From Bacillota bacterium (GTDB lineage: Bacteria > Bacillota > Clostridia > Oscillospirales > Acutalibacteraceae), in NCBI GenBank assembly GCA_030705695.1, contig JAUZPX010000001.1, forward strand, positions 1 through 53,467: a stretch of DNA of 53,467 nucleotides, read 5' to 3'. The position numbers and the translations under genes are program-made. Shown here one piece after another: positions 12,349 through 50,805 of this stretch (the first letter of the stretch is position 1; every line of letters starts with the position of its first letter). The notes beneath the pieces were generated by a model. The model was given only the letters and a program-made list of their open reading frames with translations. It ran no database searches and was not told the origin of the DNA.

Positions 12349-12426
12349 TTTGAAACGCCTCCTGTCAGAATAATAGAAAAAAGCACCGACATTCAGACGG
12401 TGCATTGATTAACATATTTTTTTGAA

Positions 12427-12693
12427 TTATTGATCTGTAAAACCTGATTCAATCAACTTTACAAGACCGTTTACGGCTTCTTGTTCATCAGCACCGTCAG
12501 CACTGATTTCAATTGTTGTTCCGCCGACAATTCCCAAAGAGAGAACACCAAGCAAACTTTTTGCGTTGACGCGTCTTTCTTCTTTTTCAACCCAAATCGT
12601 TGACTTATATTCGTTTGCTTTCTGAATAAAAAACGTTGCAGGACGTGCATGTAGTCCAACTTGATTTTGAACATTGACTTGTTTTACAAACAT
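12427..12693 (-). CDS. ptsH: Phosphocarrier protein HPr
   Basis: Both the His15 context (GLHARPA) and the Ser46 context (NAKSLLGV) are present. The likely start is the ATG at 12693 (MFVKQVNV). Confidence 0.9.
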   Translation of the reverse strand: MFVKQVNVQNQVGLHARPATFFIQKANEYKSTIWVEKEERRVNAKSLLGVLSLGIVGGTTIEISADGADEQEAVNGLVKLIESGFTDQ

Positions 12694-12763
12694 TTTTATA
12701 ACCCTCTCAATCGGAATCATTTATTCATATACAGCTTTTAAATAAGAACACTTCTTTGCATAT

Positions 12764-12791
12764 ATTATATCACAATAAAAAAAGCCGTCAA
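12764..12791 (-). promoter_or_regulatory. Sigma-A-type promoter upstream of ptsH
   Basis: Minus strand: TTGACG, a 16-nt spacer, then TATAAT. Confidence 0.5.
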
Positions 12792-12995
12792 TCAATTAAC
12801 CACAAATTCGGATTGATGAACGATTGAGGTCATTTCAACAGGACTGATTATTGTGCATCTTAACTAATAATTTTCTGTTTTTTTGCAAATAATCACTTTA
12901 ATGTTTTATACTGTTAAATTACTAAACTGATTGCGAAAAATTATTATTAAAAATGACAAGTTGAATTTAAAACTGCATTTTGATTTTGAAATTAG

Positions 12996-13703
12996 TTATT
13001 CTTCTTTTTTTGATAAATATGCTTCAAAAAGATCAGGACGATTTTTCTTTGTTCTATTTAAAGATTGTTCAAAACGCCATCTTTGAATATTAGCGTGATG
13101 ACCGGAAGTAAGTACGTCAGGAACTTCTTTGTCTCGCCAAGGGTTCGGGCGAGTATACTGCGGATATTCCAACAGTCCCCCATAATGGCTTTCTTCTTCA
13201 AAACATTCGTCATCTGACAAAACACCAGGAACCATACGACTAATTGCATCTGCCAAAACAAGCATGGGCAGTTCTCCGCCTGTAAGTACGTAGTCTCCGA
13301 TTGAAATTTGCTCGTCCACAAACTCTTCAATCACCCGTTCGTCGACACCCTCATAATGCCCACATAAAATGCAGACATTTTCATGGTTGGCAATTTCCCT
13401 GACTTTATTTTGGGTAAGCGTTTTCCCTTGGGGCGACATATAAATAAAATGCGGACGTTTACCTAACTTTTTGCATATATCTTCAAAACACAGTGCAATC
13501 GGTTCCGCCATTAAAAGCATCCCCATTCCGCCGCCGTAGGGGCAATCATCTACACGATTATGCTTGTCAATAGCATAATCACGATGCTGATGGCAATCAA
13601 TCTCAAGAGCGCCCTTGGTCTGTGCTCTGCCGATAATACTCTCGTTCATGACAGTTTCGCACATTTCTGGGAATAATGTGATTAAATCAATCCTCATCGT
13701 CAA
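12996..13703 (-). CDS. trmD: tRNA (guanine37-N1)-methyltransferase TrmD
   Basis: MRIDLITLFPEM start, YGGGMGM and SIGDYVLTGGE motifs. It overlaps the rimM stop. Confidence 0.95.
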   Translation of the reverse strand: MTMRIDLITLFPEMCETVMNESIIGRAQTKGALEIDCHQHRDYAIDKHNRVDDCPYGGGMGMLLMAEPIALCFEDICKKLGKRPHFIYMSPQGKTLTQNKVREIANHENVCILCGHYEGVDERVIEEFVDEQISIGDYVLTGGELPMLVLADAISRMVPGVLSDDECFEEESHYGGLLEYPQYTRPNPWRDKEVPDVLTSGHHANIQRWRFEQSLNRTKKNRPDLFEAYLSKKEE

Positions 13704-14202
13704 ATATTCCTTTCAACGGACGAATAATCAATTCTTCCTTTTCGATATCGGTAGAGATAATTACATCGGGAATTGCCGGAATATAATACTTCTTGCCATC
13801 AGGTGCCATAACTTCATAAACATCATTGGCACCTGTTTTCAGAACATCGCTTACTTTACCGTAAACTGCCTGAGTATCTGCATCGATAACGGAAAGCCCA
13901 ATAATATCCTGAACAAAAAAAGTTTCTTCGGAAAGTTTTATTTCATCACGATTCATATAAAGAACTTTTCCACGCATCATGTCTGCCTGCTGTACGGTTT
14001 CAATACCGTCAGCTAGAATTATTACAATATTTTTATGTGGACGAGCCTGTTTGATTTTCAAGCAATCTTTCCCGTTATTGAAATATAAAGTTTTAAATTG
14101 GCACAGAAACTCGGGGCTGTCGCACCAAGCTTCCACTCGCATTTCTCCACGGAGTCCGTGGGTAGACACAATTTTACCTATTTCTAAAAATTGTTTTTGC
14201 AT
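13687..14202 (-). CDS. rimM: 16S rRNA processing protein RimM
   Basis: IGKIVSTHGLRGEMRV N-terminal RimM signature plus a PRC-barrel C-terminus. It lies directly upstream of trmD. Confidence 0.9.
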   Translation of the reverse strand: MQKQFLEIGKIVSTHGLRGEMRVEAWCDSPEFLCQFKTLYFNNGKDCLKIKQARPHKNIVIILADGIETVQQADMMRGKVLYMNRDEIKLSEETFFVQDIIGLSVIDADTQAVYGKVSDVLKTGANDVYEVMAPDGKKYYIPAIPDVIISTDIEKEELIIRPLKGIFDDED

Positions 14203-23890: not shown

Positions 23891-24367
23891 TCAGCTCACC
23901 CGAAATGTCACAAGCACAGAAAGATGAGCTGGAACGAACTTACTAATTTCACTTGTAATCCATTCTTTTTGCTGACTTGTAAACGAACCGATGCAATCCA
24001 CATGAATAGAATTGTTTGAGTACGATTCATATATTTCATACTGTATTCCAAGTGAAGCAAGCGTTTTATTAAAGCCATCGACTGTGAAATCATTTGTGGT
24101 AATCGAAAGCCTATCCGTAATCATTTGGCGACGCTTATCGATATTCAAATCATCCCTTACGCAGCCATAAATACGTTCTCTGTTGCGGATTCCGTAGTCA
24201 ACTGCGGTCGCAACGAACATCTCACGCTGAATTTCATCAAGCTCACTGTAAAATACATCTAAAGCACATGCAAACGCCTGCAATTCTTTATAATCTGTTT
24301 GAGTTGCCGACAAATTATACAATGCCATCGGCGACAAAACAGCAATCATGGAACTAAGGCTACTCAT
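23891..24367 (-). CDS. Baseplate wedge protein, P2 gpI / Mu gp48 / XkdU (DUF2313)-like
   Basis: 158 aa immediately after Baseplate J with an ATGA start/stop overlap. Size and position are typical of the gpI-like partner of gpJ. Confidence 0.6.
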   Translation of the reverse strand: MSSLSSMIAVLSPMALYNLSATQTDYKELQAFACALDVFYSELDEIQREMFVATAVDYGIRNRERIYGCVRDDLNIDKRRQMITDRLSITTNDFTVDGFNKTLASLGIQYEIYESYSNNSIHVDCIGSFTSQQKEWITSEISKFVPAHLSVLVTFRVS

Positions 24368-25437
24368 GATGATGCTCCTTCTTCTATTGCCTGAACTGAA
24401 ACAAGCATCGGAAATGTAGTTGAATCAAGCACGATATTTTGCATATATTCCGTATAAAAAGTGTAATGAGCAACGCCGTCAACTTGATGAAGAACGTCGC
24501 CAAGGTCAGAAAGATATATTGTTTCTCCAATGCCGACAGTCTTTGCATATTCACTAAGAGCTGCTTCACAATCGCTTATTACTGTTGCAGAATCATAGCC
24601 TGTTTTTTCTTTTATGGTTACAACAACACTAATATTTATTCCCTTTGCAGAAAAAACACGAACATCAACGTTTACTTCACGTTGACTGCTTAAATATTGC
24701 TGTACTTGTGCAACCAAATCGCTTGAGGCTTCTTGACCTTTTTCGCAAATGTACACATCAACAGTTCCTACACCTCTTGCACGAGGCACCACACCTGCCG
24801 AAAAAACGCCAGAAATCTTCATTGCTTCCTCTTTATAGTAGGCAATATTTGAACCGTTTGAGATGTTTTGATAACTGTTCAAAACTCGCTTGCGAAAGTC
24901 GTAATCATCTTCTGCATCTGTTCCACCTGCCGTCGGCGAAGAATTATTGACACTGTTTACTCCTGTTGGCGGAGTTACCATAACGGTTATGGTACTTGCT
25001 GCCACATTGCCGCTAACACCGCCATCCGCTGCAATTATTGGAACATTTATTCCGACTGTACCAGAAGCAATTACTGCATCTTTTGTTGTAACAAAACGAA
25101 TTGGATTAATTCCATTTGTTGCAACAACTGTACCCGACGGAATAGAAATATCATTGTTAGATGATGTATTAATAGAAAATGTTACTTCACCTGTGGCGCA
25201 AATGGCGGTTTTTCTGGTTAATCCACGCTGTTCTCCGTGATAATCCAGTTGGATTCCCGTAGCTGTTTCAGGAAACATCTGATTTTTCAGCCAATCGACG
25301 TTGGCTCCTGCACTAAATATTTCTCCTGCCAGTAATTTGATTTTTATCCCGATATCAGATGCATCATCGGCATCATATCCTGCCAGTTCTTTAAAATTGT
25401 CTTTCATTCTTTGTAAAATCGTATCGTAACTATCCAT
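24364..25437 (-). CDS. Baseplate J-like protein (P2 gpJ / Mu gp47 / XkdT)
   Basis: 357 aa. The N-terminus (ILQRMKDNFKELAGYDADDASDIG...LAGEIFSAGANVDWLKNQMFPETATGIQLDYHGEQRGLTRK) follows the Baseplate_J pattern. Confidence 0.8.
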   Translation of the reverse strand: MDSYDTILQRMKDNFKELAGYDADDASDIGIKIKLLAGEIFSAGANVDWLKNQMFPETATGIQLDYHGEQRGLTRKTAICATGEVTFSINTSSNNDISIPSGTVVATNGINPIRFVTTKDAVIASGTVGINVPIIAADGGVSGNVAASTITVMVTPPTGVNSVNNSSPTAGGTDAEDDYDFRKRVLNSYQNISNGSNIAYYKEEAMKISGVFSAGVVPRARGVGTVDVYICEKGQEASSDLVAQVQQYLSSQREVNVDVRVFSAKGINISVVVTIKEKTGYDSATVISDCEAALSEYAKTVGIGETIYLSDLGDVLHQVDGVAHYTFYTEYMQNIVLDSTTFPMLVSVQAIEEGASS

Positions 25438-25780
25438 GAATTATCACCTGTACTTCCCCTGTTTGTTTTTTATATGTTACCGAAACATTTAAAAGGATCG
25501 ATTTATCTGCTTGAAGCTCCGATGATGTTACAGAAGCTTCCACACCAGTAAGATTTATTACAGCTTCTTTCACGAGCATATCGGCACGTTCCTTTAGAAG
25601 ATCTGTTGTACGGCTTAATGTAAAGAACTCATTGCCGAAATCGGGCGCATAAACAAAACTTCCCTTTTGCACACCAAGACAGATACGAACCCGTTGCAAA
25701 ATCTCGTCAAAGCCACCGATTAAATAAGGCTTACCACCGGAATCAATCTCATACTGCCCATTATTTATTTTTGTATCCAA
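25430..25780 (-). CDS. gp25 / gpW / XkdS-like baseplate wedge protein
   Basis: 116 aa directly upstream of Baseplate J with an overlapping stop/start. TTG start with an AGGAGG SD. The motif layout (LQRVRICLGVQKGSFVYAPDFG) is like the GPW_gp25 family. Confidence 0.65.
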   Translation of the reverse strand: MDTKINNGQYEIDSGGKPYLIGGFDEILQRVRICLGVQKGSFVYAPDFGNEFFTLSRTTDLLKERADMLVKEAVINLTGVEASVTSSELQADKSILLNVSVTYKKQTGEVQVIIHG

Positions 25781-25791
25781 TTAGATTCCTC

Positions 25792-26124
25792 CTAAAACGT
25801 CTTGCCGTTAATAAGCACACTGCCGTCATTTTTTAAAATGATTGAAGCTCCTCCGCTTGAAAAAAGCATCAGCTCACCAGCAGCCAGGTTTTTGTCCTTC
25901 ATTGTAACACCAAGGCAGACTTCCCCACTTGAAAGCGGCAGAACTACAGAATTTTCTCCTGTCGGCGGTATATATGCAATCCCAAACGGCACTACAACAG
26001 GAAGAGAACGATATTCCTTTGAGGCATCAATAAAAACTTGTCCTTCCCCTGCACTTGTAACTCCGCCAATATCTGCTGATTGAGGTTTCTTTGTATTTTG
26101 CGCCATATATTTAGGTAGCCACAT
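25792..26124 (-). CDS. Baseplate spike/plug protein, gpV / Mu gp45 / XkdR-like (small OB-fold)
   Basis: 110 aa between the hub and gpW-like genes. The C-terminus (GELMLFSSGGASIILKNDGSVLINGKTF) resembles the gpV/gp45 family tail. Confidence 0.55.
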   Translation of the reverse strand: MWLPKYMAQNTKKPQSADIGGVTSAGEGQVFIDASKEYRSLPVVVPFGIAYIPPTGENSVVLPLSSGEVCLGVTMKDKNLAAGELMLFSSGGASIILKNDGSVLINGKTF

Positions 26125-27070
26125 AAGAAGATTCCGCCTTTCTTACAAGATGTATCGTCGTTTTTTCTTGATTTTGGTTTAATATATACTCAATTTTATT
26201 AACATACAGGTTTTCGTTTTGATAATCTGTGCTGTCCTCTAGCACAGCCTTTGAGCCAAGGCAGTTAACAATCATGCAAGGGCAAACGATAGTTAAATCA
26301 AAGCTGTCCTCATTACCGATATCCATGATTTTATCAGCTGTTTGAATCATTCCGTAATTATCGCCGACAGCATTCAGATAGCGCTTTCTTTTTACGCCTC
26401 TGGTAACTGCATCTTTATTAAAAACAGAAAAAGTATAGCCGCTTTTTAAATCTGTACGAACAAGAACCTGAGAAATTAATTTATTACGTTTTATGCTTAC
26501 GTTGGAAATAAAATATTGAATTTCGCTACCGTTGTTATTAAACAAAACAGCATTTTTTTGGGCGCTTTCTGAAACATCAACCATACCGTTTTCTGTGATT
26601 CTTGGGGTAGTATTTAGAAAATTCTTACAAAAGCTGTTTAACACATACCACTCTGTAACACCCTTTGTAACACTTAAAGTGCCTTCGGAGGCAGGCTTAT
26701 CGCTTATAAAGCCTGCAAGCCCGTAATCACGAATATGTCTGTCAAAGATCACTTCGATTGTAGGATTAATGTAATTTTGCGGCAGCGCTTCATTATCTAA
26801 AAGAAGCGCTGCCAAACTTCTTGCAACCACCTTTACAAAACTGCCGCTAATGGCGCTTGCCATATCCTGCTCGTCCACAATTCCCGTGAAAACAGTTGTA
26901 TCACCGTCTGAAACAGTAAGCATTTGCAGCTCTGGCAATGCGATTTCCGTTGGGAACAGCGCAGTTAACATATCGGCAGGGACATCTGTTTCTTTTTGAA
27001 TTATTAAACTTGAAGGCGTCGAAAGCGTTATGGTATCTCCGTTTGCAGTTATTGCACTGTAACTCAGCAT
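26111..27070 (-). CDS. Baseplate hub protein, P2 gpD / Mu gp44 / XkdQ-like
   Basis: 319 aa between the LysM protein and the spike, the canonical hub position. The assignment rests on gene order and size, not on a diagnostic motif. Confidence 0.5.
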   Translation of the reverse strand: MLSYSAITANGDTITLSTPSSLIIQKETDVPADMLTALFPTEIALPELQMLTVSDGDTTVFTGIVDEQDMASAISGSFVKVVARSLAALLLDNEALPQNYINPTIEVIFDRHIRDYGLAGFISDKPASEGTLSVTKGVTEWYVLNSFCKNFLNTTPRITENGMVDVSESAQKNAVLFNNNGSEIQYFISNVSIKRNKLISQVLVRTDLKSGYTFSVFNKDAVTRGVKRKRYLNAVGDNYGMIQTADKIMDIGNEDSFDLTIVCPCMIVNCLGSKAVLEDSTDYQNENLYVNKIEYILNQNQEKTTIHLVRKAESSYVAT

Positions 27071-27585
27071 ATTGTCACGCTTTCCCCCACGACAATTTCG
27101 TTAGGGCGCCTGATATTTGGATTTAACTGCAAAAGTTTTTCTACCGTTGTTTCATATTTGTTGGCAATGGTAAAAAGCGTTTCTCCGTCTGTTGCAATAT
27201 GAACGATTTTTTCGCTCTCTTCCTGAAAAGATGTTTTCATGTCCTCACGAAAAGTAAAGGAATACTGTACAAGATTCGGCGCAGGGACGCCGATAACAGA
27301 AAGACCGGAAAACACAGCAACAAACGGATTTGTGTTCGGAATTGATAAAATTCCCGTCCGTTTTTCTTCATAGAGTTTACGCAAAATATTATATTGAATA
27401 AATGCGTCATCTCCAAAAAGCTCGCCTTCACCTGTAATAACACGGTCTTTTTGCCCAAAATCCTGTAAAACTGAAATTCCGTTTGGCAAGTTAATTTCCG
27501 CCAGGTTTTTTCCGTCGGATATTTTAATTGTTTTGGGGTTATAGCGCCAAGTATATCCGCAAAAACGCATAGAAGCTAAATTCAT
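27064..27585 (-). CDS. LysM-domain tail/baseplate protein (XkdP / P2 gpX / Mu gp43-like position)
   Basis: Clear C-terminal LysM (HIATDGETLFTIANKYETTVEKLLQLNPNIRRPNEIVVGESVTI). The N-terminal ~120 aa is an unassigned beta-rich domain. Start and stop are both translationally coupled to the neighbouring genes. Confidence 0.7.
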   Translation of the reverse strand: MNLASMRFCGYTWRYNPKTIKISDGKNLAEINLPNGISVLQDFGQKDRVITGEGELFGDDAFIQYNILRKLYEEKRTGILSIPNTNPFVAVFSGLSVIGVPAPNLVQYSFTFREDMKTSFQEESEKIVHIATDGETLFTIANKYETTVEKLLQLNPNIRRPNEIVVGESVTIC

Positions 27586-27749
27586 CGTGCGCTTGCCTCC
27601 TGTTCTTCCGTAAGAGGGCTTGAGTAGCGTCGCAAATCACGTTCGAAAGCTTCGGAAAAGCTTTCAGCGGAAATTGACATATCACTTAACAAATTAAAAT
27701 GAGATTTTTCAAAATTATTTTGAGATGTCTGATCAATTTTAATTTCCAT
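27582..27749 (-). CDS. 55-aa hypothetical protein in the tail chaperone/tape-measure slot
   Basis: Below the ORF-track cutoff. My translation is MEIKIDQTSQNNFEKSHFNLLSDMSISAESFSEAFERDLRRYSSPLTEEQEASAR. Its ATG overlaps the upstream stop (TAATG) and its TGA overlaps the LysM gene's ATG (ATGA), which argues it is translated. Confidence 0.5.
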   Translation of the reverse strand: MEIKIDQTSQNNFEKSHFNLLSDMSISAESFSEAFERDLRRYSSPLTEEQEASAR

Positions 27750-28546
27750 TATGCCCCTCCCAAGGTTTTTGTTTTTGCCAGAATGGTTACGGTATCTGTA
27801 ATTTCATCTGTCAATCGTGAATTTATATCAATCGTATTACAGCCGCTGAATGTGATTTGATTTCCTTTAAAATCTACCGTCAAGTCAAAATCCGTTATAC
27901 TTGTAAAGTCATATGTAAAATCCATTGATTTTACATCAAACGTTATTTCATACTGATTATTCTGCATAACAAAACCGACAGGTCCGCTTTCGCCGAATGC
28001 CTGAATATCATACGCGGCTCTTATGGTTTTTATCTGAAAACTGTAAGCTTTTACGGCCGATTTACCCGGTATTGATATTAAAACACCAGCATTGCTTCCG
28101 CTGTTCGGGTTAACAAAGTTTACAGTAAGTGTTGTTAGAAAAGCATCGGCTTCGTGGTGATATGTAGTTTTGGATATATTAAATTCTTTAATGTTATACG
28201 ATTCAATTCGGTGATTTTTAAGTGCGTTTATTATATTCTCGGCAGCAGTAAATGTGCAGTCTTTTCCAAGTTTCGACGGGGAATAAATATTAAACTCAAT
28301 ATTGATCTTATCGGTGTCGCTGTCTTCAAATCCACTGATATACATATCACGAATATTCATAGTAACAGTCAATACTTTTAACGGATTCGGTGAAGGAAAG
28401 TTAGCGTAACCGTATCTAAGTTCCGAGAAACCAAGCTCTGAACTTGAAAATCCCGAAAAAAAAGTATAAAGCCCGCTTAAAATATTTGTAAAACTCACTG
28501 AGATATCACCGTGCTTTCCGAAATATACTTTTCTAAAATCGCCCAA
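27749..28546 (-). CDS. Hypothetical two-part protein in the tail-terminator/tube slot
   Basis: 265 aa from a TTG at 28546. A GTG at 28498 overlaps the upstream stop (GTGA) and is the more likely start, giving 249 aa. No sheath or tube motif is recognisable by eye. It is beta-rich and sits after the head-completion genes. Confidence 0.45.
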   Translation of the reverse strand: MGDFRKVYFGKHGDISVSFTNILSGLYTFFSGFSSSELGFSELRYGYANFPSPNPLKVLTVTMNIRDMYISGFEDSDTDKINIEFNIYSPSKLGKDCTFTAAENIINALKNHRIESYNIKEFNISKTTYHHEADAFLTTLTVNFVNPNSGSNAGVLISIPGKSAVKAYSFQIKTIRAAYDIQAFGESGPVGFVMQNNQYEITFDVKSMDFTYDFTSITDFDLTVDFKGNQITFSGCNTIDINSRLTDEITDTVTILAKTKTLGGA

Positions 28547-28854
28547 ATATAAACTATTTTATCTTTTACAACAAACGTATCTGCATTTTTAATGCAATAC
28601 TTAAATTCACCGCAAGTAATAACGGCTTCCTTTGTACATTGATCGAGCCTTATTTTAGGGCTTCCTATATATAAATAGTTGTTTTTGCTGTAATATCCCA
28701 ACGGCATATAATCGTTAAATTCACTTGACAGGTTTTTATAGCGCAAAGGTTCTATGAATGCTTTTCCGTTTGCAACAATTTTCTCCTGATCAGAAACAGA
28801 AATATTGCTGCCGTATTTATATAATATTTTTTGAAACTGACTGGGTAATTCCAT
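28495..28854 (-). CDS. Head-closure / head-tail adaptor protein (SPP1 gp16-like position)
   Basis: 119 aa with a TAATG overlap to the upstream gene. Size and position are typical of a head-completion beta-barrel protein. Confidence 0.5.
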   Translation of the reverse strand: MELPSQFQKILYKYGSNISVSDQEKIVANGKAFIEPLRYKNLSSEFNDYMPLGYYSKNNYLYIGSPKIRLDQCTKEAVITCGEFKYCIKNADTFVVKDKIVYIWAILEKYISESTVISQ

Positions 28855-29231
28855 TAAATCACCCGCCTGAACATAAAATTAACGTCATCAATTAATAAAT
28901 CTGCAACATCTGCTTTTGCCCGCTGCCAGATCTGCTCGGCTGCCTCTACAGACAAGCCAGAGGTTTCCATTGAAACATCGCCGACTTTTACGTTTTCAGG
29001 GGCGCCGCCGCCCTGATACAGGCAATACCTGTAATAACTCAGAGCGGCTGCGGCTGCGTTTAGGCGGCTAACATCTTCCGGCAAAATTGTTTCATTCCTT
29101 AATCTGCGTTGAATAAAATCCATAGCCTCTTTACAAATGGGGGACCATTGAGAGGTTTCCACAGGATCAAGGCCGGAAATAAGAACAAATCGATTCATTA
29201 CATCTTTAAAATTCAAGCCGCCACCTCCCAA
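28854..29231 (-). CDS. Head-tail connector protein (gp6-like position)
   Basis: About 120-125 aa directly after the major capsid gene. The best SD (GGAGGTGG) serves the in-frame TTG at about 29216 rather than 29231. Confidence 0.5.
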   Translation of the reverse strand: MGGGGLNFKDVMNRFVLISGLDPVETSQWSPICKEAMDFIQRRLRNETILPEDVSRLNAAAAALSYYRYCLYQGGGAPENVKVGDVSMETSGLSVEAAEQIWQRAKADVADLLIDDVNFMFRRVI

Positions 29232-29233
29232 AC

Positions 29234-30244
29234 TTAAAATGTTAGCTTCAGAGAAGCGTCGTTAAAGATTTTACCGAAACCTGAAATCACACTGATAGTA
29301 GCTCTTTCAAGCTGTCTGTCGATAAGCTTGTCAGAATCGAGCAAAATATCTCCTGCCTGTACCATTTCAAGAGCACAAGAACTGTCAAGTCCGATAATCG
29401 TATTACCTGGTATGCTTGGAACATGAAGTAACGATGCACCCATAGGAGTAATCATTTTGCCTGTACCCTGGAAGTTTAAGCCTGCAAGTGAGTCTTTCAT
29501 CTCTGGCATGCTTAAAAGTGTTTGAACTACAGATGTCGGAGCCAACAAAGTATTCAGCTCATAAGGAGCAAGGCTGCCCCAGAGTTTTAAAAGATCATTG
29601 TAAGTTACGGTACCCGGTGTTGCAGTTGTTATCGCAGCACAAGGATTTCCGTTACCGTCACCGTTTAACAAAACATTTACAGCATCGCCAAGCTGTGTTC
29701 TTGCCATTTGTGCGCCGATCTGGCGAAGTGTGACTGTAAATAAATCAAGACGTTGGAAACGCAATGCTTCATATGAAGAAACAAGCATTCTTCCGTGTTT
29801 TTGCAGATTAACAAGGTTATCCTGCATTTTAATCATAATCTGCGGAATTGCTGCTGACTCTTTTACAGGCTTCAGGGATTTTTCGCTTTGAGAAGCTACT
29901 GTTGTAATGCTGCGGTAATCCATACCGTTAATATTTGTTACTGTAGCGACAATTTGCGGAAGCATATCGGCATTTGTCATTCCCTGATAAACAGCTCTTC
30001 TTACATACTCAGGGAACAGTGCTGAACTGCTTGTATTTTGAAAAAATTTCTCTACAGTATCGCTTCCGATACCATTTACTTTTATATTAAAACGCTTTAA
30101 CTGACGCTCGTAAGCATCAAGACCGCCAAGAGGAGTGCTTTCGTAGTTTTCACTCGGGTCAAGTTCTTCCAGTACATTGGTAAGGCTTTTTCCGTTAATA
30201 TTGTACATACCTTTTTCCAATGTAATTGTTTCGTAATTTGCCAT
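29234..30244 (-). CDS. Major capsid protein (HK97-fold, lambda E-like arrangement)
   Basis: 336 aa with a strong SD (AGGAGG). It is preceded by a ~110-aa decoration-like gene and a protease/scaffold gene, which is the canonical head-module order. Confidence 0.7.
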   Translation of the reverse strand: MANYETITLEKGMYNINGKSLTNVLEELDPSENYESTPLGGLDAYERQLKRFNIKVNGIGSDTVEKFFQNTSSSALFPEYVRRAVYQGMTNADMLPQIVATVTNINGMDYRSITTVASQSEKSLKPVKESAAIPQIMIKMQDNLVNLQKHGRMLVSSYEALRFQRLDLFTVTLRQIGAQMARTQLGDAVNVLLNGDGNGNPCAAITTATPGTVTYNDLLKLWGSLAPYELNTLLAPTSVVQTLLSMPEMKDSLAGLNFQGTGKMITPMGASLLHVPSIPGNTIIGLDSSCALEMVQAGDILLDSDKLIDRQLERATISVISGFGKIFNDASLKLTF

Positions 30245-30261: not shown

Positions 30262-30600
30262 TTAAAGAATAAATCCGACATTGCCGTTTGTAACATCAAG
30301 AACAAGCAGCTTTCTGCCTTTTGTTGCGTCGGCTTTTACTTTCCCGCCGGCAGCAGCACAGAGGTTTTGGTAACCTACATTAACAGTACCGCTCATTGGA
30401 ACTGAAACATAACCTCCAAGCTGTACAGAAGCATATCCGTTTGATACACTGACAGCTATACCGCAAATGTCATCTCCGTCACCGCTTGGTGATACAGTGC
30501 CATTATCTGTTACTTTAACAGGTACGCCTGCACAGGTAAGACTTGAATCGGCAGAAAAAGTAACTATTCTTTCCCCATAGCCTAAAAATGAAATATTCAT
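30262..30600 (-). CDS. DUF2190-like head decoration/cement protein
   Basis: 112 aa, Gly/Val-rich beta protein immediately upstream of the capsid gene, as for lambda gpD / DUF2190 proteins. Confidence 0.5.
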   Translation of the reverse strand: MNISFLGYGERIVTFSADSSLTCAGVPVKVTDNGTVSPSGDGDDICGIAVSVSNGYASVQLGGYVSVPMSGTVNVGYQNLCAAAGGKVKADATKGRKLLVLDVTNGNVGFIL

Positions 30601-30619: not shown

Positions 30620-31600
30620 TTAAATTCGAAATTCGTTGTTTTTTGTTAATTGTTTTTGTTCTTGCTTATGAGCGTTAATCTGAGGTCTTGGTGGAAGAAA
30701 ATCAGCTGATTTTGCCTCATATGCCTTTTTAAATTCTTTCAGCTCATCAATGTTTAGCTTATCGGTAACGCTTTCAATAGTTTTTTTCGTTATCTCAGGC
30801 TGAACAATTGCGCTTAAACGAATAACCTCGTTTTGCAGCTCATTTTTATAGGCTTGTCCGTCTTTCGCAAGATTTTGCAATTCGGCAATTTCTGCTGCAA
30901 GTGCTTTTGCTTCTTCGCTGTTAAAAGAAACTGCCGACGAACCGCCCAGTTTTTTCATAATATCCGTCAATTTGATATCCTCCTTAAAAAATTCAAATTG
31001 CTTTATGACGCCTGCCGCACGTTGAGCAGGAACCGCCACAAATGACCATTCATAGGCATCAATGGGTTCGCTTAAAACCGTATGGCAAATGCCGTCTTTA
31101 TATGTTTTTCCTTTTTGATGCCCGCAGGAACCTTTCTTCATATCGGCACCGCAAACGGAACAAGTGAATTTCTGTACGCTACAGCCTACACTAACTTCCT
31201 TTTGCATACCTGAATCAATACTTAAAATAAAGTCCTCATTCTTTTTCGAACGCGGCAAATATGCTTTTGCCGTTAATCGAAAATAGTCATCTCCGCTTTG
31301 GGTTTTCTTGTTTTCAATAGCTTCAACAAAGCAGTCGTAAATCCTTGCGGTTTGATTTTCAGCTTTTGCTTCGTGGTCGAACACACCTGTTTTCCCTAAG
31401 AAAAGCTTTTGCAGCGCAAACAAGGCTTCCACCGAAAACCTCTCGAAATCCCTATCGATATCGTTGTCGCACAACACGACAGAGAACGTATAAACTTCAT
31501 CTGCTGACAATACCCGACGAGTATATTGATTAATAAGTTCCAAATCTTTTTCAGTAACTTGACTGTTCTCTGCACTTTTTAAAATTTCTGCTGTTTTCAC
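30620..31600 (-). CDS. HK97-type prohead protease fused to a coiled-coil scaffold domain
   Basis: The N-terminal half has an S78-like layout (FDHEAK...G.QKEVSVGCS) with an embedded CxxC...CxH zinc-ribbon-like insert (CSVCGADMKKGSCGH). The C-terminal ~120 aa is helical and charged, as in scaffolds. A GTGA overlap joins it to the portal stop. Confidence 0.6.
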   Translation of the reverse strand: MKTAEILKSAENSQVTEKDLELINQYTRRVLSADEVYTFSVVLCDNDIDRDFERFSVEALFALQKLFLGKTGVFDHEAKAENQTARIYDCFVEAIENKKTQSGDDYFRLTAKAYLPRSKKNEDFILSIDSGMQKEVSVGCSVQKFTCSVCGADMKKGSCGHQKGKTYKDGICHTVLSEPIDAYEWSFVAVPAQRAAGVIKQFEFFKEDIKLTDIMKKLGGSSAVSFNSEEAKALAAEIAELQNLAKDGQAYKNELQNEVIRLSAIVQPEITKKTIESVTDKLNIDELKEFKKAYEAKSADFLPPRPQINAHKQEQKQLTKNNEFRI

Positions 31601-32763
31601 TGATTCACCTCCGTCATTTGAGCCTCAAGTTGAGACGCTTTTGCGTTTAAATATCTTGCGTTTGCCAAACCGACCTCGTCCTGAAGATTAATGTTGTTCC
31701 ATTTGATTTCAAAGTCATCGTCCTTACCGTTAAGGCGCAACCACATGGAACAGATTTTTCCGATTGTCTGATTTAACAAACTTCTGTAATATTCCAGCTC
31801 GCTTGTTAAGATGTCTGATTGCTGTGAGGACATTCTTTCGCTACTTGACCAAGAAAGCCCAAGCAAAAACGGAGGAATACCGAATTTTGAGACAATTTGC
31901 TCTAAAATTTGGCGAACAGGTACTTCGCTGTCAAGAACCTGATTATCCGCACCGATAACTTTAATTGATACATCTCCGACTGCTACAAAATCATTGACTC
32001 TGCCAAAATCATTACGCATTGCTTTACTCCATTCGGTGGCAATCTGTGTAGCACGCTCTTTTGAATAAGCCTGCGCACTGACATCGTCGCCAGGATTGTA
32101 AGTAACAGCAAAACGCACATTACCAATACGTTCCCAGTTTGAACCGATACTGTTGAAAATCTTTAAGAGAACAGAGCTGACAAAAGGTAACCCCTTTAAC
32201 AGCGATGTTCCGTAGATTCCGCCCGGTTCAGGATTTAGCATAGTCGTTAAAATCAGCGTAGGAAAAGGAACAGGTTCGCTTTGCCCGAAAGCATTGTATC
32301 GGCAGATCTGTGCTTTTAACGGAGAATCTGTCGGCAAAATCTCAACATCCTCAAGCGATGCATTATAGAGCGCCGCGATTGTTGTGTTGTCACTTGACAA
32401 TACAATCTCGCCGACAGCCGTTCCAAAAGTTAACATCTGGTCAAAATATGTATACAAAAACTGTAAAATTCCTTGTCCGCAAGCTCCAACCTGTACGGTT
32501 CTTAAAAATTGATTCAACAAAGTCTGTGTGTTTTCATCATCACAAACGATATTAAAATCTCCAATTAGCCTAACAATTTTCCCGATAGCCGCATCAATAA
32601 TTGGTACAGCTTCTCTAAGAGTTTTATACAGGCAGATTTCAGCCTGACATAAAGGAACATATCTGTTTAAGACGGTAAAAGGATGCTGACTCATTGACCC
32701 CGAGGATACCGTTTGTACGGTAGAATCCACATCCTGTTGCTTAGGTTTTTTAAAAAATCCCAC
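31597..32763 (-). CDS. Portal protein
   Basis: 388 aa between the large terminase and the protease/scaffold. GTG start with an AAGGAGG SD. Confidence 0.65.
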   Translation of the reverse strand: MGFFKKPKQQDVDSTVQTVSSGSMSQHPFTVLNRYVPLCQAEICLYKTLREAVPIIDAAIGKIVRLIGDFNIVCDDENTQTLLNQFLRTVQVGACGQGILQFLYTYFDQMLTFGTAVGEIVLSSDNTTIAALYNASLEDVEILPTDSPLKAQICRYNAFGQSEPVPFPTLILTTMLNPEPGGIYGTSLLKGLPFVSSVLLKIFNSIGSNWERIGNVRFAVTYNPGDDVSAQAYSKERATQIATEWSKAMRNDFGRVNDFVAVGDVSIKVIGADNQVLDSEVPVRQILEQIVSKFGIPPFLLGLSWSSSERMSSQQSDILTSELEYYRSLLNQTIGKICSMWLRLNGKDDDFEIKWNNINLQDEVGLANARYLNAKASQLEAQMTEVNQ

Positions 32764-32833: not shown

Positions 32834-34111
32834 TTACGATTGTCCCGTTCTTTCTGCGGCAATGGCTACAATACCATCGTCGCTTCTGTTTGCAATGGTC
32901 GTAACAAAATAGCGGATATCGTCCATTGCATGATCGTTTTCTTTTAAGGGCATGTCCCTGTCACCTTTTTCCGCATAGCGATAAAGAGAAAACTCCCTCA
33001 TGCTGTCAAGGCAAGTGTTACAAATGTTTACCCTGCCATCTTTCAATGCTGAACTTACTTTGCGGATACCGTCCTGAACATTGTTTTTTGCAGGAATTAC
33101 CGTAAATCGCCCCTGCCGCCTGATAACCTCAATAAAGCTTGCTGCTGACGGATCCACCGTTACAATCTTGACGGCATGGTTTCCTGCCAGAATGCAAAGT
33201 GCTTTATAATGTTCTTCATCAGTTTTTTGATATCCTTCTTTACGGGAATCAAAGTAATATTCTTTTAGACGGTACCATTTTCCGCTTTTCTTTCCCCACA
33301 AACCGAAAGAAGCGGGGTTAACGGTTCCATAATCGCATGAAATGGCATACTCGCTGCACTTCCCTTTGGGAACAGCACAAAATTTTTCTTCTGTCATAAA
33401 GGAATAAACAACGCCCTCTGCCGCAACCCATTCTCCCTCGACAAAGCGTCGATAAAATGCGCCTGAATACAGAGATTTATAGCGGCACAGCATTTCTTCC
33501 GAAAGAGACGGATTATCCTCCATTTTGAAATGAAGATAATGTGCATTTTTTTGCTTTGCTCCTAAAATCCATTCCTGACGAAACCAATGCTGAGGAAACT
33601 CAGGATTACAGTTAAACCAAAACTTTGAACCGCTTACCGAACATCTTGCTACCGCCTGCTCCACAAAAGAGCGAGGCATAAGTGCAACTTCATCGAAAAG
33701 GCAGCCTGCAAGAGTCATACCCTGTATAAGAGCCGCCGAACCTTCATGCTGTCCACCAAACAGATAAAAGCGATTACTGTTTTCACCGTAAGATACCTCT
33801 AAGACATTCTCAGAAAGCTTTTCACAAACCAAAAAACCAAGCTCTTTTAAAATAGGTGTAAGCGGTATTACAACATTTCGTCTTAACGACCTAATTGTCT
33901 TTCCGCAAAGTCCAAAGCTTTTGCCGTTAAACTCATAAAGCGCCCACGAGAAAAAAGAAATCCCCATGCAAACGGTTTTTCCGCTTCGCACAGCGCCGTC
34001 ACAAATAATAGCGTCACGGCCGGCATGTTTGCTCTGACCATACCACCAAGTAAAGGCACTGATTTGTTTCTTCGAAAAAACTTCAAACTGCATCGCTTTC
34101 CGGCTCAACAT
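32834..34111 (-). CDS. Terminase large subunit (PBSX/XtmB-like)
   Basis: Walker A (CDGAVRSGKT), Walker B-like (CLFDEVALM), and a C-terminal nuclease block (ENDHAMDDIRYFV). Confidence 0.9.
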   Translation of the reverse strand: MLSRKAMQFEVFSKKQISAFTWWYGQSKHAGRDAIICDGAVRSGKTVCMGISFFSWALYEFNGKSFGLCGKTIRSLRRNVVIPLTPILKELGFLVCEKLSENVLEVSYGENSNRFYLFGGQHEGSAALIQGMTLAGCLFDEVALMPRSFVEQAVARCSVSGSKFWFNCNPEFPQHWFRQEWILGAKQKNAHYLHFKMEDNPSLSEEMLCRYKSLYSGAFYRRFVEGEWVAAEGVVYSFMTEEKFCAVPKGKCSEYAISCDYGTVNPASFGLWGKKSGKWYRLKEYYFDSRKEGYQKTDEEHYKALCILAGNHAVKIVTVDPSAASFIEVIRRQGRFTVIPAKNNVQDGIRKVSSALKDGRVNICNTCLDSMREFSLYRYAEKGDRDMPLKENDHAMDDIRYFVTTIANRSDDGIVAIAAERTGQS

Positions 34112-34538
34112 TATTTTTTTGCAGAGCCTCCACCCCTTCTCTCAGAGCTTTATAAAAAGACGGTTCGCCTTTTTTCTCTTGCTCTGATTCGGTTGTTTCG
34201 AGTTTTTCAAGAGCTTTCATGCGATCAAAAAATTTCATTTCAATGATTCTTCCGTTTTGCCCCTTTACCTGTGAAACATTAAATAAATCCATATGCATTA
34301 GCTCTTCATCGCTCATATTCTCGCTGCACATAGCTCTAATACAATCGGAAATGCTGCCAAATGCCAGTTTCTTATATCCGTCAATAACCTGGTCTCGGAG
34401 CGTTTTTTCGCTCTCTTCCAAAAAAGCCAAAACCTCCTTTCTCGAAACCCGTAACAATAAGAAAAGCCGCCTCCCCAGACGGTTGCCTTCTTTTGCTCGG
34501 TTCTCGGTAATTCTAAGCTCAGAAATTACAAAGGACAC
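34083..34538 (-). CDS. Terminase small subunit, C-terminal (oligomerisation) part only; start uncertain
   Basis: The C-terminal two thirds resemble the Terminase_2 core (LAFGSISD..., IEMKFFDRMKALEKL). No N-terminal HTH of the GYS..A type is visible. The GTG at 34538 lacks an SD, while an internal AAGGAGG precedes a TTG at about 34404. The gene overlaps the large terminase start by 29 nt. Confidence 0.55.
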   Translation of the reverse strand: MSFVISELRITENRAKEGNRLGRRLFLLLRVSRKEVLAFLEESEKTLRDQVIDGYKKLAFGSISDCIRAMCSENMSDEELMHMDLFNVSQVKGQNGRIIEMKFFDRMKALEKLETTESEQEKKGEPSFYKALREGVEALQKNNVEPESDAV

Positions 34539-35156: not shown

Positions 35157-35250
35157 ATAATAATAAGGTTGTTCACATAACACTTCAGCTTTTCATATTA
35201 TGAATTACATCTGATTATAGATGCCGATTTGAATAAAGGGGTGAAATGAA

Positions 35251-35640
35251 GTGGGAAATGAATGCAATTGCAAAAATAACGGTGGACCATGTGAATGCCG
35301 CATTGCAGAAAACATGCGAGAAACAAGACGTAAACAAGAAGAAGAGCGTCGCGAAATTCAAAGATTGGCCGCTGAACAGCGCAAAGCAAAAATGCTTGAA
35401 AAAAAGCGTGAGGAAGAAAAACGCCGCCTGGCAGGCTTGCTCGCAAACTGTGAAGGCTGCAAAGATATTCAAAAAGGCCATGCTGTTGCCTGTGAAGGTT
35501 TGAAAGACGTCCGTGCAGGTTTAAATATTCTTTTTTCCGGCCATGAACGTTTGGGTACACAGAAAATCCGAGAGGGTTTAAAAGATATTGAGAAAGGTTT
35601 GTGCGACATCGACGAAGGATATCGTGATCTCTGCTGTTGA
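35251..35640 (+). CDS. Small Cys-rich, highly charged hypothetical protein
   Basis: 129 aa with N-terminal CNC...CEC, a central Arg/Glu/Lys coiled-coil-like stretch, repeated GLKD(I/V) motifs and a C-terminal CC. It ends 37 nt before a strong terminator. A competing ATG frame at 35246 (85 aa) cannot be excluded. Confidence 0.45.
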   Translation: MGNECNCKNNGGPCECRIAENMRETRRKQEEERREIQRLAAEQRKAKMLEKKREEEKRRLAGLLANCEGCKDIQKGHAVACEGLKDVRAGLNILFSGHERLGTQKIREGLKDIEKGLCDIDEGYRDLCC

Positions 35641-40714: not shown

Positions 40715-41554
40715 ATGGTAAAAAAACTTGTTAGCGTAATGTTAGTTTTAGGACTTCTTTGCGCAATGGGTTGTACTGCAATGCTGACAAGCAACGCTGC
40801 TGCCACAACTGCTACAACCCCAAAACTTTCCGGTCAAACATTTACTTACTATTTTGAAGCTCCGGCTAACTGGACTTCAAAAGGACAAACAATTGCATGT
40901 TATTATTGGGCACCGATTCAAACGTCAAGTACTGGATTTGATAATAAAGTTGGCGCTTGGCCAGGCGATCCAATGACAAAAGTATCAAATGTTCCAGGTC
41001 ATGATGACATTTGGACCTGCACTTTGCCTATAGAAGTTAACGTAATTATCTTTAACAACCTAGGCAATGCTGTTACTGCTCAAAATGCTACTGACCCTAA
41101 ATATACTGATTCAACTTACGATCATCAAACAGTAAACATCAAAAACACAGGAAATGATCCTGATAATGACATCGGTTACTCTGCAGACAAAGATGATGTT
41201 AGCTACAATTCAAATTACCCGAACGGCCTAGCAAATTTTGATAACATGATTTATGTTATACCTACCAGTACTTCTCAATCAACCAATCCTTACAGCGGTG
41301 CTGTCCAGGAAGCAGGCGATTGGAAATATTTTAACCCGACAACAGGTGAAATCAGCTTTGATTCGAGCATTTTGAAAAATGTTCCGACAACAGCCGCTAC
41401 AACAGTTGCTACAATAGCCGCAACTGACAAATCCGCTACAGATAATACACCAGTAAAAACTGGCGATAGCGCAGTTGCTGTTATCGCAACAGTTACTCTC
41501 CTTGTTTTAGTAGCCGGTGCTGTTGTATTTGCTCGCAAGAGAGTTCAAGAATAA
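40715..41554 (+). CDS. Secreted cell-surface protein with a putative carbohydrate-binding module and a C-terminal sorting-signal-like anchor
   Basis: It has a signal peptide and a Trp/Tyr-rich beta domain (YYWAP...GAWPGDPMTKV). The C-terminus has VKTGD, then a hydrophobic helix, then a basic tail (ARKRVQE), resembling a sortase signal. The CBM assignment is tentative. Confidence 0.5.
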   Translation: MVKKLVSVMLVLGLLCAMGCTAMLTSNAAATTATTPKLSGQTFTYYFEAPANWTSKGQTIACYYWAPIQTSSTGFDNKVGAWPGDPMTKVSNVPGHDDIWTCTLPIEVNVIIFNNLGNAVTAQNATDPKYTDSTYDHQTVNIKNTGNDPDNDIGYSADKDDVSYNSNYPNGLANFDNMIYVIPTSTSQSTNPYSGAVQEAGDWKYFNPTTGEISFDSSILKNVPTTAATTVATIAATDKSATDNTPVKTGDSAVAVIATVTLLVLVAGAVVFARKRVQE

Positions 41555-49266: not shown

Positions 49267-49426
49267 TATAGTCGATTAACTTGAAAAGTGTACTTGGATT
49301 TGCGAGGCAATTTTTTGATGCGCAAGGCGGAGTAGGATGGAATCCTGTCGGATTCCGACGAGGACAACACAGCGCAACAGAAAATTGACCGCTAAGGCTG
49401 TACAGTTTTTAGGTTAATTGACTATA
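49267..49426 (+). mobile_element. MITE-like repeat, copy B (about 160 nt)
   Basis: Same orientation as copy A, with ends TATAGTCGATTAACTTGAAAA / TATAGTCAATTAACCTAAAAA. It differs from copy A by about 14 substitutions and one 1-nt indel. The hairpin loop differs (TGTC versus TTTC) while the stems are kept. Its right end supplies the last 5 codons and the stop of rlmB. Confidence 0.75.
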
Positions 49427-50176: not shown

Positions 50177-50271
50177 ATTGTACCCTTTCGCTATAAAAAC
50201 ATTTTTATATATTAAATATTGTATCATATTATAGCGAATAAAAAAACATTTTTTTAATTTTTTATAAAAAA

Positions 50272-50805
50272 TCATCGAATTCCGTAATGTCCTGTAACAG
50301 CATCACGAAACAGCCCGATTTGAGGCGGAGCTACCGAAAAGCAAATGTACATTGCCAAGAAAAGCACAAGCAAAAAAAGCGATAGCACAAAAAAATCGTC
50401 AATATTTTTAAAATTTATAATAATCTTATAAGACGACATATATGCCGCTGCTACTGCAATAGAAATAAAGATCATTTCAACAACGAACGAAATACTGCCA
50501 ACAATAGAAGTATAAAGGCTTAAACATGAAACAGAAATAATAATAAAAACATAAAGCGAAAGTATCTTTGACACAACAAAGTGTCTAAACGGAAGTCTCA
50601 TACGTGCATATGTAATAACTGTCCAAAACAGATATGGCATTGCAAAGATTTTAACATGTTCCCAAATGCTTTCATTAACACTTCCAAATAAAATACTCCA
50701 CATTGCTTTATTTGAAAAGCCGTAGGAGAAATGCAGTATAATACCTAAAAACAGCGTTACAAAAAATCCGATTTTCTCCATTTTTTTAAGATGATTGTAT
50801 GACAA
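50272..50805 (-). CDS. Polytopic membrane protein of unknown function
   Basis: 177 aa with about 5 TM helices and a NESIWEHVKIF motif. TTG start with a GGGGAGGG SD. Confidence 0.55.
   Translation of the reverse strand: MSYNHLKKMEKIGFFVTLFLGIILHFSYGFSNKAMWSILFGSVNESIWEHVKIFAMPYLFWTVITYARMRLPFRHFVVSKILSLYVFIIISVSCLSLYTSIVGSISFVVEMIFISIAVAAAYMSSYKIIINFKNIDDFFVLSLFLLVLFLAMYICFSVAPPQIGLFRDAVTGHYGIR

Follow-up and report, generated by a model that had tools for sequence, protein, structure and literature searches.

A predicted terminator-tube fusion and a candidate tape-measure remnant probably join neck and baseplate in a putative gene transfer agent-like cluster of Oscillospirales

Introduction

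What can join a capsid to a baseplate when almost no tail is encoded between them? The question is raised by a stretch of 53,467 nucleotides (positions 1 to 53,467 of contig JAUZPX010000001.1, from a Bacillota bacterium of the Acutalibacteraceae), referred to below as the window. Its minus strand carries a phage-like cluster of 16 close-packed open reading frames (ORFs), which runs unbroken for 10.6 kb from 34538 to 23891 and in which every gene is intact. In PBSX and Mu, the slot between the neck genes and the LysM gene is filled by genes for a tail terminator, a sheath, a tube and chaperones, and by the gene for a tape measure, a protein several hundred to more than 1000 residues long. An initial annotation of the DNA remarked that the slot in this cluster is shorter than 1 kb and holds only a protein of about 250 residues and one of 55, with head-completion genes on one side and the LysM and hub genes on the other. 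The ORF positions bear out the first part of this description and family scans the second: between the second neck gene (g119) and the LysM gene there are only an ORF of 249 residues (g249, 27749–28498) and an ORF of 55 residues (g55, 27582–27749).

On the basis of the structure predictions and comparisons described here, we hypothesise that the slot probably encodes a working minimal tail rather than a gap. The features of the slot and its borders are as follows.

28495..28854, minus strand: g119, second neck protein, probable stopper or head-closure protein; role assigned from its position; conserved family with the motif FIQPLRY.
28109..28498, minus strand: N-terminal domain of g249 (residues 1–130), predicted tail-terminator fold (structure model and Foldseek); a separate gene of about 145 residues in relatives.
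27752..28087, minus strand: C-terminal domain of g249 (residues 138–249), predicted tail-tube protein (profile match to 8q01_A, tblastn to the tube gene of locus L001, Foldseek, phrog_27038 at 1e-7).
27582..27749, minus strand: g55, candidate tape-measure remnant (C-terminal module only), from its position and a shared motif.
27624..27644, minus strand: ERDLRRY, core of the tape-measure C-terminal motif (consensus over 66 loci).
27064..27585, minus strand: LysM173, baseplate protein with a C-terminal LysM domain, in an XkdP/Mu gp43-like position (LysM PF01476, 5e-10; weak DNA_circ_N, E=0.013; phrog_184, baseplate hub).

The slot between neck and baseplate

The larger ORF is listed as 27749–28546 (265 residues, TTG start), and the GTG at 28498 gives a protein of 249 residues. 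This GTG, named as the probable start in the initial annotation, overlaps the stop codon of g119 (GTGA), and an alignment with 14 fused homologues begins at the same position. The ATG of g55 shares one base with the TAA of g249 (TAATG) and has a canonical Shine-Dalgarno site, GGAGGGG, 5 nt upstream. The TGA of g55 in turn overlaps the ATG of the LysM gene (ATGA), with AGGAGG 10 nt upstream of that ATG. Both ORFs are thus coupled to their neighbours through overlapping stop and start codons, as the initial annotation had it. From the end of the capsid gene to the start of the LysM gene is 1649 nt.

According to ORF and family scans, no sheath, chaperone or long tape measure is encoded in the window, where the other scanned ORFs are housekeeping genes. 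There is no ORF or Pfam match for a sheath in the window, and between g249 and g55 there is no ORF that could represent a frameshifted chaperone pair. Chaperone-sized ORFs are confined to those relatives that carry a sheath gene. The proteins g249, g55, g119 and g125 (the first neck protein) are not named by Pfam, PHROGs or NCBIfam.

Structure prediction and homology of g249

Structures were modelled with AlphaFold2 (AF2), using shallow alignments of 7–11 sequences. The model of the whole of g249 has two domains, with a predicted local distance difference test score (pLDDT) of 76.5 and a predicted template-modelling score (pTM) of 0.70. When it is compared with the PDB using Foldseek, it matches tail tube and Hcp proteins, tail terminators, and proteins with tandem tube domains such as T5 pb6. 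A search of the viral structure library BFVD agrees with this picture.

The N-terminal half was also modelled alone (residues 1–134; pLDDT 77, pTM 0.75). Nearly all its matches are terminator, cap or collar proteins (E 6e-6 to 1e-3, TM-score 0.5–0.67), including the monocin cap, the gateway protein of E217, lambda gpU, the collars of pyocin R2 and diffocin, and the Mu terminator, together with the terminators of T1 and T5 and the virion chain 6tba_4A of RcGTA, a gene transfer agent (GTA) of Alphaproteobacteria. There are 39 matches at E<=1e-3, nearly all of them to neck, terminator or collar chains. In sequence searches of Pfam, NCBIfam and the PDB, neither g249 nor the family of 25 N-half genes matches a curated terminator, and scanning 25–26 family members singly against Pfam gave chance matches only. 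In those relatives that have a sheath gene, the homologue of the N-half is the sole gene between the stopper and the sheath (for example in L014).

For the C-terminal half there is a match at the level of sequence. A profile of the family (A5) matches the tail tube of phage 812 (8q01_A) with E=2.9e-8, and weakly matches both the gp56 tube of phiCD508 and a protein related to XkdM. In L001, the tube gene, which comes after the sheath gene, likewise aligns with the C-half (tblastn, 2e-8).

Because the N-half is predicted to fold as terminators do and the profile of the C-half matches the phage 812 tube, g249 is identified, by model and profile, as a terminator domain fused to a tube domain. Such a fusion had been put forward as a speculative reading of the sequence, with the suggestion that the structure be predicted and compared using Foldseek. 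When this was done both folds were returned; for the N-half the gene order in sheath-bearing relatives lends further support, and for the C-half the profile match and the alignment with the L001 tube gene do so. Both halves are full-length domains, homologous to complete genes and not to fragments.

Close homologues of g249 are few. A word-indexed search with g249 finds one protein, and with a 13-member alignment four. Exhaustive HMMER searches find three full-length relatives (245–279 residues, 24–26% identity) and four proteins of about 125 residues that match only residues 131–247. A metagenome scan with g249 found no relative. Profile searches of the PDB with the g119 and g125 families gave chance matches only; what is meant by chance matches in these searches (those with the N-half and mini-protein families included) is hits to a de novo protein, an FMN transferase, ribosomal protein L22 and phosducin.

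The mini protein g55

The C-terminus of g55 in the window reads SEAFERDLRRYSSPLTEEQE. An ORF that ends at the start of the LysM gene and bears this motif is present in 66 of 70 loci, with the consensus S-E-x-[LF]-E-[RQ]-D-[SA]-R-R-Y-x-R-x-[LF]-x-E-E-E-E. In a six-frame translation of the window, ERDLRRY is the sole match to E[RQ][DE]xRR[YF]. The location of g55, directly between g249 and the LysM gene, is the position of the tape measure, and in the sheath-bearing relatives the longer proteins found in that position have this motif at their very end. These have 183 residues in L001, about 94 in L014, 123 in L084 and L159, and 160–197 in L154, L158 and L163. Tape measures are very short even in relatives with a sheath. 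The pairwise homology of g55 to these proteins is weak (E-value 0.009). Neither g55 nor its relatives of 94–197 residues match a curated or solved tape measure in Pfam or in a PDB profile search with the mini protein. The g55-like gene of L167, encoding 51 residues, was annotated as a gene by an independent pipeline.

Since it shares both position and motif with the proteins of 94–197 residues, g55 is most readily interpreted as what is left of a tape measure, namely its C-terminal module. The suggestion that the 55-residue protein is a minimal tape measure is therefore strengthened by the motif with which the longer proteins end.

It is worth adding that three sheath-bearing loci from IMG/VR (L154, L158 and L164) have permuted head genes, with the capsid gene ahead of those for portal and scaffold. 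Their tape measures have 160–167 residues (possibly 287 in L164) and end in RRDSRR[FY]DGG.

Distribution of the cluster and variation of the slot

Relatives were found using a profile of the capsid protein, which detects a related protein in no fewer than 566 species genomes of GTDB and in at least 388 contigs of IMG/VR. The 80 genome loci kept were all from Ruminococcus, Ruminococcaceae, Acutalibacteraceae, Oscillospiraceae and allied Clostridia, and the interval was measured in 70 genome loci and 50 IMG/VR loci. Carriers include the isolates Ruminococcus sp. JE7B6 (CP162391) and JL13D9 (CP162392), both sheathless, Hydrogeniiclostridium mannosilyticum ASD2818, the sheath-bearing Acetanaerobacterium elongatum CGMCC 1.5012, and Faecalispora jeddahensis. 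The closest relative of the window is L167, with a capsid protein 70.5% identical and a common upstream PALP gene 80% identical.

In about 55 of the 70 genome loci (1.54–1.8 kb) and 39 of the 50 from IMG/VR (1.48–1.85 kb), the capsid and LysM genes are about as far apart as in the window. A distance of 0.8–1.4 kb occurs in a handful of the genome loci and in six from IMG/VR (0.8–1.13 kb), and one of 3.5 kb or more, accompanied by a sheath gene, in three and five, respectively. The comparison with orthologous loci that the initial annotation had proposed finds the short interval conserved in most relatives. Sheath genes are confined to rare relatives and were confirmed by Pfam where tested (PF04984/PF17482). 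L001, L014, L084, L159 and L163 carry one and also keep a tube, chaperones and a tape measure of 94–197 residues, all of which occupy the slot between g119 and the LysM gene and are not found elsewhere.

The usual interval contains five ORFs: a g125-like gene, a g119-like gene, a homologue of the N-half of g249 (about 145 residues), a homologue of the C-half (about 125 residues) and a mini gene (about 45 residues). The terminator and tube halves are separate genes of about 145 and 125 residues in 48 of 71 classified loci, and the 249-residue protein is a fusion of two genes that most relatives keep separate. By a length criterion the two are fused in 15 of the 71, of which at least L028 and L051 look misassigned. 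The fusions are scattered over at least five clades of the capsid-protein tree and are found also in the closest relatives (L167, L166 and L006) and in P0002, P0003 and P0008–P0011. In L046, L069 and L077 the g119-like stopper protein is fused straight to the tube domain. In two further loci, L029 and L043, one of which is the isolate Hydrogeniiclostridium mannosilyticum, the LysM gene is preceded only by two neck genes and an ORF of 51–60 residues. Living relatives display a graded series, from a sheath with a tape measure of 94–197 residues, through separate terminator and tube, fused terminator and tube, and fused stopper and tube, to no tube at all.

The ratio of nonsynonymous to synonymous substitution rates (dN/dS) was calculated for pairs of closely related loci. 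It is 0.04–0.31 for the terminator, tube and fused genes, similar to the values for the neighbouring neck genes. For the mini gene it is 0.14–0.29 in five close pairs, and 0.49 in a sixth pair that is more diverged. Judged by these ratios, the slot genes are under purifying selection. Compared with its counterpart in L167 (9001–9840), g249 has about 24% identity, against 70% for the capsid protein and 80% for the neighbouring host PALP gene. The terminator-tube protein is the fastest-evolving in the cluster, yet its dN/dS in close pairs is about 0.15–0.2.

Gene content of the cluster

The remaining genes of the cluster were named from family scans (Pfam, PHROGs, NCBIfam), with some roles assigned by position only. 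In order of transcription they are as follows.

34083..34538, minus strand: small terminase-like protein, 151 residues, first gene of the cluster (weak Pfam Terminase_2, E=0.002); kept directly upstream of the large terminase in relatives.
32834..34111, minus strand: large terminase, 425 residues (Terminase_6N, 6e-14; phrog_2, 1e-43).
31597..32763, minus strand: portal, 388 residues (phrog_30703, 1e-134).
30620..31600, minus strand: protease/scaffold-like protein, 326 residues (phrog_16951, 6e-100); matches a head maturation protease family weakly.
30262..30600, minus strand: head protein of 112 residues, without a family match; conserved in most relatives, flanked by the genes for scaffold and capsid protein.
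29234..30244, minus strand: HK97-type major capsid protein, 336 residues (PF25209, 5e-14; phrog_3922, 5e-91; TIGR01554).
28854..29231, minus strand: g125, first neck protein, probable head-tail adaptor from its position; a family of about 120 residues kept in relatives.
26111..27070, minus strand: baseplate hub, 319 residues (phrog_177 baseplate hub, 1e-6); position conserved.
25792..26124, minus strand: baseplate protein of 110 residues (g110) in the spike position (phrog_25991, 3e-11); putative spike role from position and analogy with Mu gp45.
25430..25780, minus strand: gp25-like wedge protein, or 'sheath initiator' (PF10934, 2e-7; phrog_120).
24364..25437, minus strand: Baseplate J wedge protein, 357 residues (PF04865, 7e-55).
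23891..24367, minus strand: Mu gp48-like wedge protein, 158 residues, last gene of the cluster in the window (PF10076, 7e-12).

The hub (phrog_177) and the whole wedge core of a contractile-type tail (gp25-like, Baseplate J and gp48-like proteins; PF10934, PF04865 and PF10076) are thus present. The gp48-like gene and aspS, whose end is at 23819, point towards each other. We found no recognisable hydrolase in the cluster, and a scan of it for promoters and terminators gave results at chance level.

In about 20 of 39 relatives (L006, L008, L009, L017 and others), and in L167, a gene for a protein of about 155 residues lies some 140 nt downstream of the gp48-like gene. It has no Pfam match in these relatives. 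Its N-terminus, MASTNKTxNLGLxxWxxxDxPxRxDFxxDNxxID, gives it the look of a short fibre or receptor-binding protein whose N-terminal part may attach to the baseplate.

A proposed model for a stub tail

We propose the following arrangement. From the capsid outward, the stack would consist of the portal, the g125 adaptor, the g119 stopper, a terminator ring, a tube ring, and LysM173 with the hub. Below the hub would come g110 in the spike position, and then six wedges of the gp25-like, J and gp48-like proteins. The stub would be about two rings tall, made of a single tube ring capped by its own covalently attached terminator ring, and would join the neck (g125 and g119) to a complete baseplate of the Mu/PBSX type (LysM protein, hub, spike-position, gp25-like, Baseplate J and gp48-like proteins). 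The tape-measure motif of g55 would sit inside the lumen, docked in the hub.

Two considerations bear on the length. A helical tape measure spans about 1.5 Å per residue, and the rise of a tube ring is about 4 nm. The 55 residues of g55 would then correspond to about 8 nm, or roughly two rings, and the tape measures of 94–197 residues in sheath-bearing relatives to about 14–30 nm. In addition, if every tube subunit carries its own terminator, further rings could not stack, which would limit the tube to one ring. The independent fusions in several clades would likewise fix a 1:1 stoichiometry of terminator to tube, as expected for a single ring.

A particle built in this way would look tailless or podovirus-like, though its parts would derive from a contractile tail. 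Without a sheath there would be no contraction, so DNA exit and passage through the wall would work as in a short-tailed particle, with the LysM domain available for binding peptidoglycan. The gp25-like protein would be kept as a core component of the wedge, and not on account of a sheath. The DNA packaged by the particles would be that of the host.

Chromosomal setting

In the window and in L167, no integrase, replication, regulatory or lysis genes were found in or beside the cluster. The flanking ORFs are all housekeeping genes (dcw and mre genes, penicillin-binding proteins, minD, hisS, aspS, uvrC, trmD and rimM), and the window also contains dnaB/dnaI-like genes, spmA/spmB, a PALP enzyme and a methylpurine glycosylase. 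The window has spmA/spmB upstream of the cluster, as do 11 of 57 loci. Provirus calls in IMG/VR, 10.1–11.8 kb long, coincide with the cluster.

Some homologues are deposited in GenBank as 'Bacteriophage sp.' contigs, from preparations of faecal virus-like particles (VLPs). These contigs also hold genes for SecY, NrdD, GerA, SpoU and ABC transporters, and the presence of host genes on them fits either packaged host DNA or contamination. Two such records, labelled 'UNVERIFIED: Bacteriophage sp.', are segments of bacterial chromosome: L002 (MT835952, 8464–14840) and L004 (MT835508, 7825–44423). Around the cluster they carry GerA, a SpoU methylase, SecY, NrdD, ABC transporters, a fucosidase and an MCRA hydratase.

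Because the cluster lies among core genes and is without integrase, replication and lysis genes, we read it as GTA-like. From its gene content it is likely to be a domesticated chromosomal element rather than a phage, widespread in Oscillospirales.

Comparison with known systems

GTA-like packaging of host fragments of 4–9 kb has been reported in Ruminococcaceae, Oscillospiraceae and Christensenellaceae (Borodovich et al., 2026; PMC12946183). Particles of 40 nm without visible tails were obtained from Faecalibacterium, the only genus in which a GTA locus (FpGTA) was identified (PMC12946183). The packaging signal was also seen in Ruminococcus and related genera, with fragments of 4–6 kb in Ruminococcus callidus, CAG-115 and taxa related to them, where no locus was identified (PMC12946183). 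FpGTA has a capsid protein of the N4-gp56 type, a Prp protease and a podovirus tail nozzle, with baseplate, fibre and lysis genes in a second operon (PMC12946183). The present cluster resembles it in having a gut Oscillospirales host and a structural operon of about 10.5 kb without replication genes (PMC12946183), and its predicted particle would likewise look tailless. It differs in its HK97-type capsid protein (TIGR01554) and in a contractile-type baseplate within the same operon. Identity with FpGTA was considered and rejected, since the capsid family of FpGTA is a different one and FpGTA has a tail nozzle. The cluster is best read as a second, independent GTA-like family, with a putative function in packaging and transfer.

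In L004 (22055–27504), L076, L079 and L080 there are head and neck genes only, without the baseplate module, and host genes on the opposite strand come next. Three of these four have a terminator-like gene of about 145–155 residues. They could represent a split locus as in FpGTA, or a capsid-only element.

In the baseplate there is a close likeness to PBSX of Bacillus subtilis (xkd genes) and to Mu gp43–gp48, which have the same order of LysM protein (XkdP-like), hub, small protein, gp25-like protein, J and gp48/XkdU-like protein. PBSX is, moreover, a chromosomal phage-like element of a Firmicute. It packages host DNA. The difference is in the slot, which in the window has no sheath or chaperone, has terminator and tube as one protein, and has a tape measure of 55 residues. 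GTAs of the RcGTA type resemble the cluster as head-tail clusters of the core chromosome, without integrase or replication genes and present across an order-level clade, and the chain 6tba_4A noted above comes from the RcGTA virion. The tail of RcGTA, however, is of the siphovirus type, its tube and tape measure are ordinary, and it has no gp25/J/gp48 wedge.

Considering the tail proteins singly, residues 1–134 of g249 are predicted to fold like the terminators of lambda (gpU) and Mu and the collars of pyocin and diffocin (TM-score 0.5–0.67), and the homologue lies directly ahead of the sheath gene in relatives. The N-half differs from them in having no match at sequence level and in being covalently joined to a tube domain. 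T5 pb6 and the tail tube protein of P74-26 also have two domains of the tube superfamily per chain, as the whole-chain Foldseek matches show. Those are tube-tube duplications that polymerise into long tubes, whereas g249, as a terminator plus a tube, should cap itself after one ring. Finally, capsid-forming phage-inducible chromosomal islands (cf-PICIs) are likewise small chromosomal elements with their own terminase, portal, capsid and connectors and no full tail. The cf-PICIs carry integrase and regulation genes and use the tails of helper phages, whereas the present cluster has no such genes and encodes its own baseplate.

Alternative explanations

The initial annotation offered as its alternative that the slot is a deletion scar. 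As an account of the history this stands: the probable course of events is that a contractile tail, already very short, lost its sheath, its chaperones and the greater part of its tape measure. The stronger version, that a recent deletion in a decaying prophage welded gene remnants together and left two functionless ORFs, does not. In its favour are the sheath-bearing relatives (L001, L014, L084, L159 and L163), which indicate that tail genes were once lost, the absence from the window of the fibre-like terminal gene of relatives, and the lack of integrase or lysis genes nearby. But the short interval recurs with intact ORFs of the same size in different species (about 55 of 70 genome and 39 of 50 IMG/VR loci), dN/dS is 0.04–0.31, both halves of g249 are full-length, fusions arose repeatedly, and all 16 genes of the window are intact. 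Recurrence of the interval, purifying selection, full-length domains and repeated fusions exclude a recent scar at the level of the family, and for the window itself we regard it as extremely unlikely; the architecture is conserved and selected. A different possibility is that the sheath, a polymer of tube and a longer tape measure come in trans from a second locus or a helper phage. FpGTA does have two loci, 125 kb apart (PMC12946183), and L004, L076, L079 and L080 hold head and neck genes only; the gp25-like 'sheath initiator' is kept, and just 53 kb of the genome is visible. Against this, the tape measure sets the length of a tail, and the one in the canonical position has about 45–55 residues. 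A terminator fused to every tube subunit is, besides, incompatible with stacking more rings, and such fusions recur. Sheath-bearing relatives also keep sheath, tube, chaperones and tape measure in the same slot. Supply in trans is thus unlikely.

Two other alternatives concern what kind of element this is. The cluster could be an infectious small phage or a satellite with an unusually short tail. Its homologues do, after all, appear in GenBank under the name 'Bacteriophage sp.', from preparations of faecal VLPs, and also in IMG/VR, and there are PHROG families for its portal and capsid protein. However, neither the window nor L167 has integrase, replication, lysis or regulatory genes within the cluster or beside it, the supposed phage records themselves hold genes for SecY, NrdD, GerA and SpoU, the IMG/VR entries are provirus calls of 10–11 kb equal to the cluster, and the chromosomal neighbours are common to relatives. 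An infectious agent therefore seems very improbable. A conserved particle with a purpose other than gene transfer (bacteriocin-like, surface-binding or linked to sporulation) is suggested by the proximity of spmA/spmB in 12 genomes, by the adjacent GerA gene in L002 and L167, and by the affinity of LysM domains for peptidoglycan. The retention under selection of terminase, portal and a full capsid module would nevertheless imply packaging of DNA, and packaging of host DNA by particles from these bacterial families has been reported (PMC12946183). This explanation we consider improbable.

Several points weigh against a working stub tail in a GTA-like element. All the structures are predictions, made from alignments of 7–11 sequences. 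L029 and L043 have no gene for either terminator or tube, so that the stub is perhaps dispensable, or these copies defective. Between g249 and its fused counterparts the identity is only 23–26% in loci where the capsid proteins are about 68–70% identical, which indicates fast evolution. The fibre-like gene of about 155 residues was not found anywhere in the window using tblastn and hidden Markov models, and aspS abuts the cluster; this copy may be incomplete, or the gene may be elsewhere. A sheath or a second tube gene may likewise lie elsewhere in the genome, of which 53 kb was seen, and the structural genes of FpGTA are divided between two loci. Retention of a gp25-like 'sheath initiator' in the absence of a sheath can be explained, as gp25 belongs to the core of the wedge, and is not proof. 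Finally, synteny with spmAB is limited to 11 of 57 loci.

Significance

In the literature we found neither the architecture nor the element family described, and its components are already in databases, as PHROG families, IMG/VR entries and unannotated GenBank virome contigs. It is possible, though we would hesitate to call it probable, that these clusters constitute an undescribed and widespread GTA family of gut and rumen Oscillospirales, 'podoviruses by reduction' in which a complete myovirus baseplate would be attached to the neck by one self-capping terminator-tube ring, with a tape remnant of about 50 residues as its template, and that they may explain the packaging of 4–6-kb fragments. 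The family is a concrete candidate for the published GTA-like signals to which no locus was assigned. Should the particles package host DNA, the gut of humans and ruminants would have a second and independent lineage of GTAs.

Tail morphotype (myovirus, siphovirus or podovirus) is usually treated as a deep and stable trait. In this family a contractile tail appears to have been pared back to a baseplate seated on the neck, with intermediate stages of the reduction surviving in living genomes. To a specialist, the surprising features are this surviving series, the predicted self-capping fusion of terminator and tube, and a tape measure of about 50 residues. The lengths of about 45, 94–123 and 160–197 residues form a natural series on which the ruler function of the tape measure could be tested at its lower limit. 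The cluster also gives a handle on the role of the gp25/J/gp48 wedge in the absence of a sheath, and on how DNA would leave through a baseplate that does not contract. A minimal particle of head plus baseplate from 16 genes would be an attractive chassis for engineering, and the family is common enough in cultured gut and rumen bacteria for direct testing.

Other features of the window

An ORF of 120 residues without a family match (35198–35560, minus strand) lies between the methylpurine glycosylase and PALP genes, about 660 nt upstream of the small terminase, and tblastn found no homologue of it in related loci. An ORF of 884 residues without a Pfam match (46565–49219, minus strand) adjoins the gene for a SpoU rRNA methylase (49409–50275, minus strand). 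In L002 an ORF of 916 residues without a Pfam match (10590–14168) is also paired with SpoU, and this looks like a conserved pair of host genes near the element. On the plus strand, 40715–41554 encodes a protein of 279 residues with a starch-binding module (CBM26). This module, the spmA/spmB genes and the GC content of about 39% together hint at an amylolytic, spore-forming host resembling Ruminococcus bromii.

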